This document shows positions 2,700 to 53,787 of a stretch of DNA of 64,000 nt, one piece after another (within the stretch, counting starts at the first letter, position 1; every line of letters starts with the position of its first letter). A program made the translations under genes and the position numbers. The notes below the pieces were generated by a model that saw nothing but the letters and a program-made list of their open reading frames with translations, had not been told where the DNA came from and ran no database searches. Source of the DNA: Octopus sinensis (taxonomy: Eukaryota); assembly GCF_006345805.1 (NCBI RefSeq), contig NC_042997.1, positions 186,310,001-186,374,000 of the forward strand, written 5' to 3'.

Positions 2700-2808
2700 A
2701 TATGTATATACGTAAACATGTCAGTATGTACGTACACGTATGTATATATGAATTTATAATGTATATATATATATATATATATATATAATAGATATATATA
2801 ATATATAG

Positions 2809-2842
<34 letters not shown>

Positions 2843-2949
2843 ATATGCTATATATATATATAGTATATACATACAATATATATATGTATATATTTATATA
2901 TAATATATATTTATATGAATATATACATATATATATATATATATGTATG

Positions 2950-2990
<41 letters not shown>
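2700..2990. repeat. (TA)n-rich microsatellite
   Basis: Direct reading. Forms the left boundary of the hammerhead array. Confidence 0.95.
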
Positions 2991-3150
2991 TAAATATTAG
3001 TTATCGCCATACTAATATGGCATTTCTATAAAAATAAGAAAAAAGCTGACCGCTTATTAGCTCCATGAGGCCATCGCCTTAAGTTAGCTATTTGATACAC
3101 AATCTGTTCCATATAACCTTTGACAAGGGAGTCAGTCCGCTCCACACTAC

Positions 3151-3209
3151 TTGGCCGGCAGCTACAGACGCGTTTCGGGGTATTGCCCCTTTTCATGCAG
3201 CGTAGCCAA
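3151..3209 (-). ncRNA. Type I hammerhead ribozyme motif, copy 1 (1-nt deletion at the core start)
   Basis: Reverse strand reads gctgca-tgaaaa-gggg-caata-cccc-gaaa-cgcg-tc-tgtagc. Confidence 0.65.
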
Positions 3210-3505
3210 ACCAGTAGGTGTCGCTTCCGACAATCTCTGTTCAAAGGTTTTATTTACCTAGCTTCGGTGGAATACATCCACTTGTTTTCAATAATTAAAT
3301 ATTAAAATTACTAAGTCTCTCTAAGAGACAACGGCAGCGTTCCCGGAAATATTAGTTATCGCCATACTAATATGGCATTCTTATAAAAATAAGAAAAAAG
3401 CTGACCGCTTATTAGCTCCATGGGCCATCGCCTTAAGTTAGCTATTTGATACACAATCTGTATCCATATACCTTTGAACAAGGGAGGTCAGTCGCTCCAC
3501 ACTAC

Positions 3506-3565
3506 TTGGCCGGCAGCTACAGCGCTTTTTTCGGGTATTGCCCCTTTTCAATGCAGCGTAGCCAA
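3506..3565 (-). ncRNA. Hammerhead motif, copy 2 (GAAA/stem III region corrupted)
   Basis: Reverse strand reads gctgca-ttgaaaa-gggg-caata-ccc-gaaaaaagcgc-tgtagc. Confidence 0.45.
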
Positions 3566-3629
3566 ACCGTGGTGGTCGCTTCCGACAATCTCTGTTCAAA
3601 GGTTTTATTTACCTAGCTTCGTGGAATAC

Positions 3630-4101
3630 TTTTAGAGAGACTTAGTAATTTTAATATTTCTATTATTGAAAACAAGTGGATGTATTCCACCGACTAGGTA
3701 AATAAACCTTTGAACAGAATTGTCGGAAGCGACACCTACTGGTTTGGCTACGCTGCATTGAAAAGGTGCAATACCCCGAAACGCGTCTGTAGCGCCGGCC
3801 AAGTAGTGTGGAGCGACTGACCTCCCTGTTCAAAGGTATTATGGATACAGTTGTGTATCAAATAGCTAACTTAAGGCGATGGCCTCATGGAGCTAATAAG
3901 CGGTCAGCTTTTTTCTTATTTTTATAAGAATGCCATATTAGTATGGCGATAACTAATATTTTCCGGGAACGCTGCCGTTGTTCTCTTTTAGAGAGACTTA
4001 GTAATTTTAATATTTCTATTATTGAAAACAAGTGGATGTATTCCACCGAAGCTAGGTAAATAAAACCTTTGAACAGAGATTGTCGGAAGCGACACCTACT
4101 G
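3630..4101 (+). repeat. Hammerhead-bearing tandem repeat, forward arm (1 unit plus the start of the unit interrupted by the LINE)
   Basis: ttttagagagacttagtaa recurs at 3630 and 3986 (period 356). The interrupted unit resumes at 9454. Confidence 0.92.
3744..3802 (+). ncRNA. Type I hammerhead ribozyme motif, copy 3
   Basis: gctgca-ttgaaaa-ggtg-caata-cccc-gaaa-cgcg-tc-tgtagc, with one stem II mismatch. Predicted cleavage after C3787. Confidence 0.7.
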
Positions 4102-4315
4102 ATTTTTCCTTGGATTACGTCGGATTATTTTACGCTGTAAGCTGTTATGTTAGTTCGTTCTGTTCTGGATTTAACGTACAATTTTTGGAGTATTAACTTG
4201 TGGAACAAATTATTTTCGCCCTTCGGGGTAGAAAATTTCTTTTTATATATGAACTTTAATTCAGTGTGGATTTAATTTTTATCTTGTCTCTTGTGACAAG
4301 TCACTTGCATTTTAT

Positions 4316-5797
4316 ATGGATCTTGACTTAACGTCAAATTCTGATTTTCCCGAGATGGGAGAAGTTATAAAGCAAAAGGATACAAAGGAGAAACAAAGTT
4401 TTTCGGAAGCCGTTGGAGGCAATGTTATAGAACTGGAAGTAACAATGGAGGATCTCTTCAAGTTCAGAAAGTTCATACAAAGGAATGGAGAAGAAACGAG
4501 AATAATACCGCCCCCTGACACCTTACAAGCAATCCGTGAGAAGACGGTAATTTATAAGGTATATAATATTAAGGAAAAAAAGATGCAGATGTAAGAAATG
4601 AATTGGTAGAACGGTGCATGGCACCAATTTGGAACAAGGTTCGCTATGTTGGCCGAGGAGTGAGAAGCGCTACTATTGAAGCGCATTTCGAGTCGGCTAG
4701 CATAGCGAAGGAAATTTCAACTCAAACGTTGAAGAGTGCAGACATCCTGTTGCTGCCCACGTACTTAGGGCGCAGAACAGCTAAGATAACAATAGAGGAT
4801 ATACCAACAGGTTACGATGTAATGTGGGCAGCAACAGCGGTCGTATTCGACGTAGAAGAGAAATTAAACATTTTAAACATGAGGATGAAAGAGGCAAAAT
4901 TTGGAAAGGTCAGCAGCTTGAAATGATCGTTCAAGCTGACAATGCAACGCTGGAGAGTTTGCCAGACAGGGTCTTCGTGGGGGATGGACACACTGCGCGG
5001 GTATCGGTGGAGGGACGTAGGCCCAGATGTTTCAAATGTGGGCAGAAGGGTCACGTCCGCTCAGAGTGCAAAAAGAAAAACCCGTTAATGCCCCCATTCA
5101 AACCGCTGTGGAGAACAAAGCAGACATCACAGCAACAACAAAAGAGAATACCCGGAAAAAGCAAAATGAAAGTCAAAAGGAGGAAAGAAAATGAATGGAA
5201 AACAAAGCGAAAACGAAAACGAGGTGGAAAATATTTTATCAAATGGAAAAGAACTGGAAGTAATGGAATATACGACTGTAACCAACAAAAGGAAGAAATC
5301 CAATACCCCGGACTCCCCACCCCAAACAAAAAGAAAAACAAACGCAGAAGACAACACAAAAAAATTATCCAATCCCACCCCGCTGGCACTACTTTTGTAG
5401 GCCAGCATTTCATTAAACCCCAGCCCCCAACTTTAAAAGGATTCAAAAAAACCGATAGGTGCATTGCTTATAACACAAAAAACGAGAGAGTAGTTGGTAC
5501 ATAAAGGCGAAACCAAACATAAAATGTTTCAGATCATCGGAAAAAAACCCGGATTGGAGGTATGCGAAGGTCGGAGAGGAGGAATGGAAGGAGAGACTCT
5601 TCCAACTACACGTGAGGGACAACCTGATTAAAGATGTCACACAAGAGGTGATAGCTGGAAAATTGAATATTAGCCCGGCAGCCACTCCATCCCAGAGCCC
5701 GGTGGCAACGCCGGTTAAATGCCCAGCAACAACGGAGAGTGTGGGGGAGGCAGGCAGACAAAAAGCTGCCATGCTCCCTCTCACAACACGTAAGTAA
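4316..5797 (+). CDS. Tx1 ORF1, gag-like zinc-knuckle protein (frameshifted in this sequence)
   Basis: Joins ORF-track pieces 4316, 4603, 4824, 5191 and 5612. Motif CFKCGQKGHVRSEC (CX2CX4HX4C). Several shifts lie in or near A-homopolymers. Confidence 0.8.
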
Positions 5798-5817
5798 CAA
5801 ACTTTCTTCATTCATCG

Positions 5818-8800
5818 ATGATTAAGTTTGGCTGTATAAATGTGCGTGGAATGGGGGTCGAAATGGAAACAGGCTTGCTTGCTGGACGACCTCAGGACAC
5901 ACAGAATAGATGTAGCCATTGTCACCGAGTCCAAGATGAGAGGAACCCAAGCGTTCTCGCATCTTCTCAATGGTTACGAGAAATTTATTTCTCCTAGCCG
6001 AGGAGGAAGTGCAGGCGTGGCAGTCCTTATCAGGAAGAACTTGGACTTACAGGTAAGTACTGTCTTTATGGACCCAGAAGGTAGGCTGGTTGTCCTCGAT
6101 GTAACTCACGTAAGTAAGCAGTCCTTCAGGTTGGTAGCTGTTTATGCTCCTAATGAGGGTAGGCAGACTGGTTTTTATCGGAACTTGGAGCACTTTCTAG
6201 TGACGTCTAAAACGGTAGTATTGGTAGGGGATTTCAACACTATCATCGATGCGCGGATAGATAGTGTGGGCTCGTCTGATAGAAGGGGGAATCCTTGCCT
6301 TAAGGGTCTACTGACGAGCTTTAATCTAGTAGATCGGTTTCGAATGGATGAGCCGAGCATTCCACAGTGGACGTGGAGTAACAATGACGGCTCACGCAGA
6401 TCGTATATAGATAGGGTATTTGTTAAAGAACGAGATAGGAATAGCATTAGCTGTCCACAATTTTGTATTGTGCCTTACACGGATCACAAATTAGTGACGT
6501 GTGAGGTACATGTAGATAAATGCCATAGACAGGGACCCGGATACTGGAAAATGAACAAGTCTATTTTGGCTTGTGAAGCTTTCCGTAACCGGATATGGAA
6601 TTAGTCCAGAGGGCATTATGTGGAACCATCATTAATAATAGATGGTGGATCGCCCTCAAAAGAGCCATCCGTTTGGAGTCCATTAGATTTAGCAACCAGC
6701 TAAGTTTAGATAGGACTAGAATAGAGGGCGATTTAGTTAAGAACTTAGACGAGGCAATGGGATCTGGCTGTGCATCTAGAGTGTTAGCAGAGAGAACGAT
6801 CTTGTACCGTCACCTCAATGCCAAGCATGAAGGATGTAGAGTCAGAGCTAAGCTACGTGCAGTGAAACGAGAAGGTATTAATGTTGCCGGATGGGCACGT
6901 CGTGTGGAGAGTCAGAAGGGCAAAAAGTCCTCTATTAAGTCTTTAACTGACGAACAGGGACGCAAAATCTATGGACAGGAGGAGATACAGAAGGTCTTTC
7001 AACAGCATTTCGCTCGGTTGTTTGGGGAGGGCGATCCACTCGAGCGAGGGGAGGACTTACAGAACTTCCTAGCTGGTGGGCCTCGGCTCTCGCCAAGCAG
7101 AGCGGAACGCTGTGAAGGACCGATTACTCCCGCGGAGGTAAGAGGGGTTTTGGCTGAATGCGCCCGGGAAAAGTCGCCGGGACTGGATGGTCTGCCCTAT
7201 GAGTTTTATTGTTGTATGCCGGACTTGTTCGGGGACATACTGGCAAGCGTCTACGCAAACTGGCAACAGAATGGGAGGATTCCCAGTTCTGTGAGCCGGG
7301 GAGTTGTGACGCTGATCCAGAAAGACCCGAGCAAGGGGGATAATATTAGTAATTATAGGCCCATAACTCTACTTAATGTAGAGTTAAAGATTTTGGCCAA
7401 GGTGTTAGCAGAAAGGTTGAAGGTCGTCATGGAAAAACTTGTCGGAAAGGCACAGACATGTGCAATCCCAGGCAGGTCGATCGAAGATAATCTTCACCTT
7501 CTACCTACGCTACACTATAGACAGGGTTGGGCAATTAGCCGGCAAAGGAGGGGCATTGGTCCATTTAGACCAAAGTAAAGCATTTGATAGGGTAGATCAT
7601 CAGTAACCTGGCGACGGTTCTCGAAGCGGCTGGGCTAGGTCCTGACTTTCGCGGGTGGATATCAGCTATGTACAGCGGTATCAAGTCCACAGTCCAGATA
7701 AACGGTTACTTAACGGAACCGTTTTCGATTAAGCGTTCAGTTCGTCAAGGATGTCCCTTGTCCCCTCTCCTGTACGTTTTGGCTCTTGAGCCATTGCTGC
7801 GGAAGTTGGAGACGGTGAGATGCAATCCTAATGAAATCGGATGCGGTAAGTCTGTTTCTGCGTATGCGGATGACGTCACCTTCATCGTGTCCAACGAAGC
7901 ACAACTAACTCGTGTAGAAGGTGCTCTCCGAAGATACGAAGCGGTGGCTGGGGCAAAAGTTAACAAGGACAAGTCCACTGGTTTGCGCCTCGGCACCTGG
8001 AGGAACAAGCCGATATCGTCCAGTGTTGTTGGACACTGGACAGATGGTCCTGTTAAATTGCTTGGAGTTTGGTTTGGTTCAGACTCCCAGACGGAGAAAA
8101 ATTGGAGCGAGGTAGTGACCAAGGTAGAAGCCATAGTTTGGGAGTGGTCCGGAAGGCATCTTTCCTTGAAAGGGAGGGCGGAGGTGGTACAGGTGTTTAT
8201 AGCATCTGTAATCACCTATCGCCTGACTGTCGTGCCTTGCCCCGATTTGTGGCTAAGCAAGTTGGATCGACTCCTTTTCCGCTTTTTGTGGAAGGGAGGA
8301 AAGCCACTTGTAAGGCGCTCCGTGTGTTGCCAGGAACCACTAAAGGGTGGGCTGGGGATGCCTTGGTTAATGATGCGCAGGCATGCGCTGAGACTGAGAC
8401 ATCTCTGGTTTCACCTGGAAGGTGATAAGGTGTGGAGTCCGCTGGCAGATAATTTCTTCCCGCAACCGGACTCTATGGAGAGATTTAAACCCGGTTTCAT
8501 TAAAAGACGGAATCTGACTTTATGGCAGAAAGAGTGCCGACAGGCACTCTGGCTGATCCACAAGATAGGCAAAGCCGGCTGCGGGAATACCACCTCGACA
8601 TTTTATAGAAGGATGGTAGAGGCAAAAAATGACGACGTCCTAAGAGGGTCTCTGGGGTTCGATGAGGATCAACTATCCGACCTGTTTAAGAAGACTTTCA
8701 AGCCGGGGTATTTGGACAATTACCAAAAATCCCTGACTTGGCAGTGCTATAGGAATGCTCTACCTGTTCGCGATAAGTTATATAGGCATGGAATGTCAGT

Positions 8801-9197
8801 GCCACCGACATGTCCAAGATGTGGGTTGGACGATGAAACCGTCCAGCACGCTTTTGTACATTGTCAGGAGCTGTCAGGCTTAATAAGTTACGTAGAACAC
8901 GTGTTGTCGCATCTGGGACGAGTACAGCTATCGGCTGGTTCTATAATAAAGATGATACCGCCAGCTGGACTCTCAAAGGAAGGTGAGGCTTGTTTTCACT
9001 GTACGGTGGCAGTACTGAAAGAGTGTGTGTGGAGAACTAGATTGGAAGGTTTGGTGTCAGGATCCTTTGTCTCTGGATATGGTATGTTAAAATACTTCAG
9101 ATACCATCTAAAGAGCAAGATGGATTTAGAGAAGAGGAACCTGACACAGAAAAAGTATGTGAATCGATGGAAGGATGTGATAAAAAGGTGGGTGTGA
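5818..9197 (+). CDS. Tx1 ORF2: AP endonuclease, reverse transcriptase and C-terminal CCHC zinc finger (few frameshifts)
   Basis: Start MIKFGCINVRG. APE motifs 'VYAPN', 'GDFN', 'SYIDR', 'TDH'. RT motifs 'KSPGLDGL', 'NYRPITLLN', 'RQGCPLSP', 'YADD'. C-terminal 'CPRCGLDDETVQHAFVHC'. Confidence 0.92.
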
Positions 9198-9453
9198 GTA
9201 ACCCTGCTTGGTCATCATGAAGGGAGAAAATAGTCTCTGGGCTCTTAGGCTGTCGGGTAAGAATCCTGACTGTGATATACCTAGCTGGCCAAAATCATTT
9301 TTAATTTAAAAAAAAAAAGGAGAAAAGTAAAGTCTAGTATCATAATCAATACACATATGTAAATATCAAACGAACAACGTAAACTTTTTGTAATTATGTT
9401 TTGTATTGTAATGTACTATCTCTGTAAGATTTTATAATCATAATAAAGATTTA

Positions 9454-9753
9454 GGAAGCGACACCTACTGGTTTGGCTACGCTGCATTGAAAAGGGGCAA
9501 TACCCCGAAACGCGTCTGTAGCTGCCGGCCAAGTAGTGTGGAGCGACTGACCTCCCTTGTTCAAGGTTATATGGATACAGATTGTGTATCAAATAGCTAA
9601 CTTAAGGCGATGGCCTCATGGAGCTAATAAGCGGTCAGCTTTTTTCTTATTTTTATAAGAATGCCATATTAGTATGGCGATAACTATATTTTCCGGGAAC
9701 GCTGCCGTTGTTCTCTTTTAGAGAGACTTAGTAATTTTAATATTTCTATTATT
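9454..9753 (+). repeat. Remainder of the hammerhead repeat unit downstream of the LINE
   Basis: Continues the unit exactly from the TSD and ends in (TA)n at ~9754. Confidence 0.92.
9473..9532 (+). ncRNA. Intact minimal type I hammerhead ribozyme motif (U3:A8 core), copy 4
   Basis: Helix I gctgca(9481-86)/tgtagc(9517-22), extended by ttggct/ggccaa. Core ttgaaaa (9487-93). Helix II gggg/cccc with a caata loop. GAAA at 9507-10, palindromic cgcg in helix III, GUC cleavage after 9516. Confidence 0.82.
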
Positions 9754-9782
9754 ATATATTATATATTATATATATATATAGC

Positions 9783-9815
<33 letters not shown>

Positions 9816-20803: not shown

Positions 20804-20980
20804 TGGCGCGAAATATGTAGAGACAAACCGCGTCACATGTCAACCAGTGGCGCGAACTATGTAGAGACCACTCGTGTCACATGTCAACAAGTGGCGCGAA
20901 CTATGTAGAGACCACTCGTGTCACATGTCAACCAGTGGCGCGAAAATAAGTGGAGACAAATCGCGTCACGTGTCAACCAA
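20804..20980. repeat. 44-bp minisatellite, 4 copies
   Basis: tggcgcgaa..atgtagagac..cg.gtcacatgtcaaccag starting at 20804, 20848, 20892 and 20936. Confidence 0.92.
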
Positions 20981-24379: not shown

Positions 24380-24965
24380 GATAGGCACAAAGCCTGAAAT
24401 TTCGGTGAAGTGGGTAAGTCGATTACATCTTGCTCAGCTGGTACTTACTTTATCGACGCCGAAAGGATGAAAGGTGAAGTTGACACCGGCGGAATTTGAT
24501 TTCAGAACTTAAAGACGGACGAAATATCGCATTTTGCTGACGTGATAACGATTCTTATTTCTTTATTGTCCACAAGGGGCTAAACATAGAGGGACAAACA
24601 AGGAAAGATAAACGGATTAAGTCGATTACATCGACCCCAGTGCGTAACTGGTACTTAATTTATCGATCCCGAAAGGATGAAAGGCAAAGTCGACCTCGGC
24701 GGAATTTGAACTCAGAACGTAACGGCAGACGAAATACCTCTTTCTTTACTACCCACAAGGGGCTAAACACTGAGGGGACAAACAAGGACAGACAAACGGA
24801 TTACGTCGATTAATCGACCTCAGTGTGTAACTGGTACTTATTTAATCGACCCCGAAAGGATGAAAGGCAAGTCGACCTCGGCGGAATTTGAACTTAGAAC
24901 GTAGCGCAGACGAAATACCGCCAAACCTTTCGCCCGGCGTGCTAACGTTTCTGCCAGCTCGCCGC
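24380..24965 (-). mobile_element. SINE family A dimer nested in another family A copy
   Basis: Three bodies, head at ~24965. Confidence 0.85.
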
Positions 24966-28002: not shown

Positions 28003-28112
28003 ATGCTTACAGCACCTGGGTTTCCCAAGAGCGTTCCCATCTAAGTACTCACTAGGCTCGACGTTGCTTAACTTCTTCGACCGGACGAGAACCGGTGCTT
28101 TCAACGTGATAT
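28003..28112 (-). pseudogene. 5S rRNA pseudogene (5'-truncated, diverged)
   Basis: Reverse strand atatcacgttgaaagcaccggttctcgtcc..gaagttaagcaacgtcgagcc..agtacttagatggg..tgggaaacccaggtgctgtaagcat matches the metazoan 5S pattern, including the box A and box C regions. The first ~10 nt are missing. Confidence 0.85.
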
Positions 28113-28371
28113 ACAGAGCGAGGGAGAGATAGAGAGAGAGAGAAAGAGAGAGAGAGATTGTGTCTGAGTGAACAATATATGTATTAGAGAACATTTGTTA
28201 ATTGGAAATTGTGATTTTAGTTCCTACATACATGTATACATATCTACATAATACATATCTATATACAGAGAACAGTGTCAGTGTGCGAATAATGTGTATA
28301 CATAAATGCATGTGCATGTATGTATATATGCATACATACACACATATGCATATTTGTTTGCATCTGTGTGT

Positions 28372-44160: not shown

Positions 44161-44800
44161 TCTTTGTGTCTGTATTTGTCGCCAACCACGGTTTGACAAC
44201 CTGCGCTGATGTTTTTACGTGCCCGTAACTTAGCGTTACCGCAAAAGAGACCGACAGAATTAGTACTATGCGGCGAGCTGGCAGAGTCGTAAGCACGCCG
44301 GGCGAAATGCTTAGCCGTATTTCGTCTGTCGTTAGGTTCTGAGTTCAAATTCCGCGGAGGTCGACTTTGCCTTTCATCCTTCCGGAGTCGATTAAATAAG
44401 TACCAGTTACGCACTGGGGTCGATATAATCGACTTAATCCCTTTGTCTGTCCTTTTTTGTCCTCTCTGTGTTTAGCCCTTTGTGAGTAGTAAAGAAATAG
44501 TTATTTCGTCTGCCGTTACGTCCTGAGTTAAAATTCCGCCGAGGTCGACTTTGCCTTTCATCCTTTCGGGGTCGATAAATTAAGTACCAGTTATGCACTG
44601 GGGTCAATGTAATCGACTTTATCCCTTTGTCTCTCCTTGTCTGTCCCCTCTATGTTTGGCCCCTTGTGGGTAATAAAGAAATAAGAATTAGTACTATGCT
44701 TTAAAACAATAATTCCTGGGCTCGATTAGTTTGACAAAAATTCTTCAAGGAGATGCCCCAACATGGCCGCGGTCTGATGACTGAAAAAAATAAAAGGAGT
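43962..44800 (+). mobile_element. SINE family B interrupted by a SINE family A dimer (44272-44683)
   Basis: 16-bp TSD agaattagtactatgc at 44256-44271 and 44684-44699. Confidence 0.88.
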
Positions 44801-53339: not shown

Positions 53340-53787
53340 GATTGTATCAAACTGGTACCATTTGCTAAGATATGTCGTACGATTGTATCAAGCTGGTATC
53401 ATTTGCTAAGATATGTCGTACGATTGTATAAAGCTGGTATCATTTGCTAAGATATGTCGTACGATTGTATCAAGCTGGTATCATTTGCTAAGATATGTCG
53501 TACGATTGTATCAAGCTGGTATCATTTGCTAAGATATGTCATACGATTGTATCAAGCTGGTATCATTTGCTAAGATATGTTGTACGATTGTATCAAGCTG
53601 GTATCATTTGCTAAGATATGTCGTACGATTTATCAAGCTGGTATCATTTGCTAAGATATGTCGTACGATTGTATCAAGCTGGTATCATTTGCTAAGATAT
53701 GTCGTACGATTGTATCAAGCTGGTATCATTTTCTAAGATATGTCGTACGATTGTATCAAGCTGGTATCCTTTGCTAAGATATGTCGT
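53340..53787. repeat. 41-bp minisatellite, ~11 near-identical copies
   Basis: Unit gattgtatcaagctggtatcatttgctaagatatgtcgtac. Confidence 0.95.

Follow-up and report, generated by a model that had tools for sequence, protein, structure and literature searches.

A full-length LINE in the genome of Octopus sinensis lies inside a short tandem repeat array, between two same-strand motifs that resemble hammerhead ribozymes, and the locus raises the question of whether the element takes the ends of its RNA from these motifs. The locus is part of a window of 64,000 nt, the whole stretch of DNA that was analyzed (GCF_006345805.1, NC_042997.1, positions 186,310,001 to 186,374,000 of the forward strand), and its features are listed in Table 1. 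The GTC triplets of the two motifs terminate at C3787 and C9516. The predicted cuts enclose 5,729 nt (3788 to 9516), composed of 314 nt of repeat (3788 to 4101), the 5,352-nt LINE and 63 nt of target sequence (9454 to 9516), and this geometry, on which the original prediction of a ribozyme-excised transcript was built, was confirmed when recomputed. A 17-bp target-site duplication flanks the LINE. As had been noticed, the window copy has an AATAAA, the sole one in its 256-nt 3' UTR, and no A-tail after it. The position of the LINE between two same-strand motifs needs no special cause, because any insertion into an inner unit of this tandem repeat gives such bracketing.

Table 1. Features of the LINE-bearing array, in positions of the 64,000-nt window
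Feature	Position	Strand	Remarks
(TA)n bounding the inverted arm	2739-2988		
Inverted retrozyme-like arm	2992-3629	-	One partial unit (2992-3211), one full unit (3212-3567) and a fragment (3575-3629)
Forward arm before the LINE	3629-4101	+	Partial unit 3629-3741 and unit 3742-4101
Upstream hammerhead-like motif	3752-3793	+	Prediction; cut after 3787; helix II has a U-C mismatch (3767/3775)
U1/U2-type promoter (PSE-like) motif	4026-4049	+	59 nt ahead of the first base of the duplication; 10.8 bits
5' copy of the 17-bp duplication	4085-4101	+	Transcription start predicted at 4085
L1/Tx1-type LINE, full length, frameshifted	4102-9453	+	ORF1 from ~4316 (CCHC knuckle); ORF2 from ~5818 to ~9197 (APE, RT, zf-RVT)
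AATAAA	9442-9447	+	Retained by both subfamilies; 6 nt ahead of the LINE end
3' copy of the 17-bp duplication	9454-9470	+	No preceding poly(A)
Remainder of the split repeat unit	9471-9753	+	Followed by (TA)n at 9753-9810
Downstream hammerhead-like motif	9481-9522	+	Prediction; U3:A8 core, 1-bp helix III with palindromic loop; cut after 9516

The Pfam domains zf-CCHC, Exo_endo_phos, RVT_1 and zf-RVT identified the two ORFs as those of an L1-group LINE. Among solved structures, ORF2 best matched LINE-1 ORF2p (E 3e-66), with R2 at E 4e-23. A separate search gave 45 matches with no named Tx1 reference among them, and membership of the Tx1 clade proper is putative. Both ORFs of the window copy are frameshifted, perhaps partly through assembly errors, and 1-bp indels are frequent across the LINE copies (4 to 109 indel columns per copy). 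One sibling, L107 (2565-7469), has open frames of 493 and 1,132 amino acids and is the sole copy among 37 with both frames open in this assembly. In a further copy (L121, 4153-4343), ~190 bp are inserted at LINE position 1870.

The host repeat has a unit of ~362 bp. Its arrays are short and dispersed and frequently include an inverted arm and end in (TA)n, and its hammerhead motif has 1,363 exact matches genome-wide. It agrees with retrozymes in being made of dispersed non-coding tandem units of 200 to 400 bp, each with a predicted type I hammerhead. Both motifs of the window can be written in this form, with a helix I of 6 bp, a helix II of 4 bp, the core UUGAAAA and an NUH triplet. In the core, U3/A8 replace C3/G8, a variant that the available part of PMC4209133 describes for Penelope-type minimal hammerheads, and helix III is a single A-U pair closed by a palindromic tetraloop. 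Hammerheads with a helix III of 1 bp cleave poorly as monomers (6% in 1 h) and well as dimers, as given in the portion of PMC7229834 at hand. None of the Rfam hammerhead models matched the motif at the gathering score or up to E=10, and folding z-scores were modest (-2.2 for the downstream and -0.15 for the upstream motif). The helix II mismatch already pointed out for the upstream motif is present in this assembly, and a mismatch of this kind occurs in 1 of 120 tabulated motifs. The commonest motif variant changes G-C of helix II to G-U. A shared helix II variant was considered as a private marker joining two loci and was rejected, as it is found in 177 of the 1,363 motifs; miRNA matches in the Rfam search of the upstream region were also rejected, since they derive from the inversion hairpin of the array. 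Across the genome, both arms of the retrozyme arrays terminate beside (TA)n at one of two fixed unit positions, ~218 or 281 nt past the insertion site.

Some repeat copies begin where the motif is predicted to cut. At 21 genomic places the sequence that follows the cut has a base other than C in front of it; 14 of these are copies whose first base lies exactly at the predicted bond, and the other 7 represent point or indel variants. Among the 14, four share 2 bases with the inverted arm and two represent one duplicated locus. About 2 exact starts would be expected by chance, a rough figure estimated from 80 truncation points in a sample rather than genome-wide, and the difference hints at cleavage at the predicted bond in vivo.

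A total of 48 LINE 3' ends were examined, 42 from this subfamily and 6 from a sister subfamily, including all 39 exact 3'-end matches in the genome. In the repeat-targeted subfamily, 41 of 42 ends join the duplication motif at the same base of the ~362-bp repeat, and an A-run of at least 8 within 40 nt was present at none of the 48. The original prediction had set tail-less siblings against siblings carrying poly(A) at random sites, and the former were found. With 41 of 42 copies in the same flank, beside a 17-bp target-site duplication, the element belongs to the target-specific LINEs, for which the accessible text of PMC4494074 sets a threshold of more than 20% of copies with the same flank. 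Full-length heads numbered 38 versus 42 tails, and about nine in ten copies are full length; 37 of the 38 matches in the head search are real and one is a chance match, and in the search behind the U1-headed copies described below 2 of 4 were chance matches.

In 27 of 28 readable copies, the allele at the first base of the duplication agrees between the two ends, and the target site also holds 5'-truncated copies (L137 and the second copy in L128), which argues for independent target-primed insertions. Judged from its copies, the LINE is a young, target-specific and tail-less element that inserts by its own target-primed route. Exact empty target sites number 1,252, so that ~3% of sites are filled. 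Filled sites cluster, with 7 of 45 further sites in LINE-bearing loci occupied (from 4 loci) versus ~3% overall, and plain independent insertion does not explain this clustering.

The insertion site coincides with a promoter-like context. A matrix was built from 7 non-redundant U1/U2 upstream regions out of 35 fetched (20 of 42 U1 and 15 of 48 U2 matches), and the PSE-like motif of the repeat scored highest of 674 unit positions, with the next best at 3.9 bits. Its score lies inside the leave-one-out range of real promoters (6.2 to 18.6), read from a matrix of 7 sequences and with deviations of the motif from the U1/U2 core at some positions. The same level was reached at 8 of 127,952 window positions, the repeat's own copies among them. 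The offset of -59 from the duplication equals that of 4 of the 7 training genes, and the arrangement is that of an snRNA-type promoter, with a PSE-like motif followed after ~60 nt by a pyrimidine-purine start, C and then G or A. A motif of this type, 56 to 59 nt ahead of the duplication, precedes 36 of the 38 full-length heads, the remaining two being LINE-duplication-LINE dimers. The duplication likely corresponds to the opening 17 nt of a transcript of snRNA type, and the LINE RNA would start at ~4085.

The upstream hammerhead motif was absent from 17 of the 38 full-length heads, and just 8 of the 21 present are the exact consensus, some of the differences possibly being assembly errors. The proposal that the upstream ribozyme defines the 5' end of the RNA is not supported, given the absence from 17 heads and the snRNA-type motif at ~-59 in 36. 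The other part of that proposal, that the LINE borrows transcription from the array, is retained, as the promoter motif points to use of the transcription unit of the repeat. R2 has its own HDV-like ribozyme at its 5' end. The octopus LINE, unlike R2, has no ribozyme of its own and no self-cleaving motif fixed at the 5' end of all full-length copies, and the predicted one available for borrowing lies 63 nt beyond its 3' end.

The LINE could instead be an ordinary Tx1-type element, transcribed from an internal promoter near 4102, polyadenylated in target sequence just past the AAUAAA and targeted by endonuclease preference, with the ribozymes and the promoter motif as bystanders. Its 5' UTR of ~215 nt could hold a putative promoter, the AATAAA is retained 6 nt from the LINE end in both subfamilies, and Tx1-clade elements target other mobile elements via their endonuclease, as far as the consulted part of PMC4494074 goes. 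We regard this account as unlikely in view of the sister subfamily. Its LINE end adjoins U1 +1 in a U1 gene cluster (L133, 6159-6322), and at two non-U1 sites the sister head is preceded by U1 nt 1-17 (L127, ~2337-2354; L136, ~560-577), the same length as the duplication in the repeat. These two sites lack the promoter motif, and one of them sits between two U2 genes. Because U1 nt 1-17 travel with the sister head, that RNA must have begun upstream of the LINE. Of five off-target 3' junctions, four start like the first bases of U1, and none of the five off-target copies was primed on an A-tail. The U1 and repeat targets have no obvious shared sequence, each is positioned at +1 of a PSE-type promoter and has a 17-nt head, and the endonucleases of the two subfamilies are identical at 231 of 245 residues (94%), which together with the travelling U1 head runs against targeting by endonuclease preference from an internally started RNA. 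None of the off-target copies of the repeat-targeted subfamily shows an RNA head of its own, and its RNA 5' end is thus placed by analogy with the two U1-type copies.

The reading we consider probable is that a young L1/Tx1-type LINE inserts into a retrozyme-like, hammerhead-bearing repeat at a single base, that this base is likely an snRNA-type transcription start, and that read-through RNA primes precise, tail-less insertion. The U1/U2-type promoter of the repeat would start RNA at ~4085; the transcript would open with the 17 duplicated bases, cross the LINE and continue through a second copy of them. A new empty unit would be nicked at +1 by the endonuclease of the LINE itself. The read-through tail would pair with the nicked strand so that reverse transcription is primed precisely where the LINE ends, with no tail copied, and pairing of the 17-nt head at the other nick would yield full-length 5' junctions that are exact. 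A bolder extension, speculative and on balance rather unlikely, is that the LINE targets by transcription-start position and its own RNA flanks instead of endonuclease sequence preference. It would hit +1 of snRNA-type promoters and inherit a 17-nt terminal repeat (U1 or retrozyme) that guides its progeny, so that the target could switch with a near-unchanged enzyme, and in the retrozyme the borrowed hammerhead would cut the 3' end back, so that a 63-nt tail matching the target replaces poly(A).

For the RNA 3' end, the original prediction combined target-identical read-through with a ribozyme cut. Read-through best explains the exact junctions and is retained, and the cut shares its place with polyadenylation as a candidate. 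Of 41 on-target copies, 39 have the downstream hammerhead at +63 and 7 have a second motif one unit later. In our judgement a hammerhead cut at 9516 could quite plausibly make the 3' end, at somewhat less than an even chance. Polyadenylation 10 to 30 nt past the AAUAAA, inside target sequence, is about as likely, given that both subfamilies retain the signal, and an end farther downstream is somewhat less likely. A precedent for a Tx1 poly(A) signal was not present among the literature matches listed. Either the cut or polyadenylation would leave a target-matching tail able to anneal at the nick, as proposed for R1 in the available portion of PMC2718515. Assembled contigs of four runs presumed to be RNA contain the empty-site joint, reveal neither RNA ends nor strand, and showed no A-tail among the loose ends listed.

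The model originally put forward, in which two hammerhead cuts free the 5,729-nt RNA, possibly circular, as the retrotransposition intermediate, also draws on the arrays. LINE-unit-LINE arrays with a period of ~5.72 kb were found at 3 loci, and LINE-duplication-LINE dimers at 2 loci, in 33 mapped regions. One array (G000:C3:72,500,871-72,529,901; L092-L095) spans 29 kb, has all 5 target sites filled with full-length LINEs, four copies on one strand and one inverted, and contains at least 2 LINE haplotypes, which could be blurred by polishing errors. Divergence within it was 0.8 to 3.7 substitutions/kb (10 pairs), compared with a median of 3.2 between young loci; the C13093 pair differs by 14.6 substitutions/kb, with subfamily-level markers differing along the whole length. 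The window copy is 0.96/kb from a C3 copy in the LINE, while their flanks are 3.4% and 3.1% apart, and the closest LINE pairs across loci often have different flank subtypes on both sides. Over 26 loci, LINE distance correlated weakly with flank distance upstream (Mantel r 0.25, p 0.027) and downstream (r 0.40, p 0.008), and in 14 young loci r was 0.32 upstream (p 0.04; 5 variable columns only) and -0.04 downstream (p 0.56). The mapped loci contain 24 inversion points, every one of them in the repeat and none in the LINE, with three truncated copies unreadable where they border N runs.

A rolling-circle origin of the LINE-unit arrays was rejected, given the non-clonal haplotypes and the inversion points, and the circular 5.7-kb intermediate is disfavored on the same grounds. 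The two-cut model does have the geometry, the motif at 21 of 38 heads, exact 5' junctions that fit an RNA carrying upstream target sequence, the exact starts at the predicted cut at 14 of 21 places against the roughly estimated ~2, the arrays at 3 loci, among them one that has 5 copies and includes an inversion, and L107, whose upstream arm begins exactly at the cut (1 of 31 loci, by estimate close to what arrays at large would show). It is nevertheless very unlikely to describe the intermediate. The heads without the motif and the inexact motifs count against it, as do the non-clonal array copies, the close pairs in different flank subtypes and the inversion points. The helix III type is weak as a monomer, the LINE separates the two motifs by 5.7 kb, and a second downstream motif is present in just 7 of 41 copies. 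The U1-type sister subfamily moves without any ribozyme, and an uncapped 5'-OH RNA is a poor mRNA. A 5,729-nt two-cut RNA may still exist as a by-product, because the retrozyme's own cycle needs read-through past the inner promoter. Detection of a 9516-to-3788 back-junction by RT-PCR is confounded, as this joint reads like any ordinary repeat unit and the genome itself contains LINE-unit-LINE arrays.

The arrays and haplotype mosaics might alternatively be assembly or polishing artefacts masking clonal rolling-circle copies of a composite unit made by Penelope-type enzymes. The numerous 1-bp indels, the mosaic haplotypes and the presence in all five units after the C3 copies of the variant found in 177 of 1,363 motifs are compatible with this. 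We hold it to be extremely improbable, since the C13093 pair differs throughout by subfamily-level markers and inversion points are missing from the LINE, and it would account for 3 of 31 loci only. Read-through-primed insertion at a promoter start stays the preferred reading; the weak correlations between LINE and flank distances, the surplus of filled sites near other copies and the upstream arm of L107 count against it.

Compared with known systems, the LINE resembles the Tx1 clade as presented in the parts of PMC4494074 at hand, having two ORFs with APE and RT, membership of the L1 group and a fixed site in a multicopy RNA gene or mobile element. Targets in that clade include Tx1D (Tx1L), U2 snRNA genes (Keno) and Mariner-N4 (crocodilian Tx1-Mar), and certain families of Tx1-Mar possess U1/U2-derived heads, like the U1 head of the sister subfamily. 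It differs from these systems in that its target is a hammerhead retrozyme-like repeat at the predicted +1, with a near-identical sister at U1 +1. The repeat is like metazoan non-LTR retrozymes in its ~360-bp tandem units, its predicted type I hammerhead, whose helix III of 1 bp is closed by a palindromic loop, and its dispersed short arrays (PMC7229834; bioRxiv 10.64898/2026.07.22.740005; both seen in part); it differs in the U3-A8 core and in hosting a LINE. It shares a candidate snRNA-type promoter with newt satellite 2, for which such a promoter is cited in the accessible part of PMC2220036. With R1/R2 rDNA elements the LINE has in common predicted target co-transcription, target-identical RNA flanks that could anneal and duplication-separated arrays; R1 transcripts carry annealing flanking target sequence, and R1 arrays are separated by the duplication, according to the same portion of PMC2718515.

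A LINE targeting a retrozyme was not found in the literature searched, which was mostly below full text and without supplements (including parts of PMC13282606 and PMC6155905), and within that literature the system is an unreported variation on target-specific Tx1-type LINEs. A coding retrotransposon here parasitizes a ribozyme retroelement with single-base precision; roughly nine of every ten copies are full length, and tails are absent. Near-identical endonucleases act at unrelated sequences in the same promoter-relative position, and what sets Tx1-type targeting (enzyme, promoter complex or RNA flank) can be tested by flank swaps, a question that bears on tools for site-specific gene insertion.

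Elsewhere in the window, positions ~490-1470 hold what we take, by eye, to be a decayed mariner-type transposase gene with terminal repeats. A 5S rRNA-like sequence (28004-28119, minus strand, 55.5 bits) is probably either a pseudogene or the head of a SINE. At 53340-53787, 20804-20979, 24558-24919 and 44318-44683 lie minisatellites (41 bp x 11 and 44 bp x 4) and SINE-like units of ~183 bp in tandem pairs.
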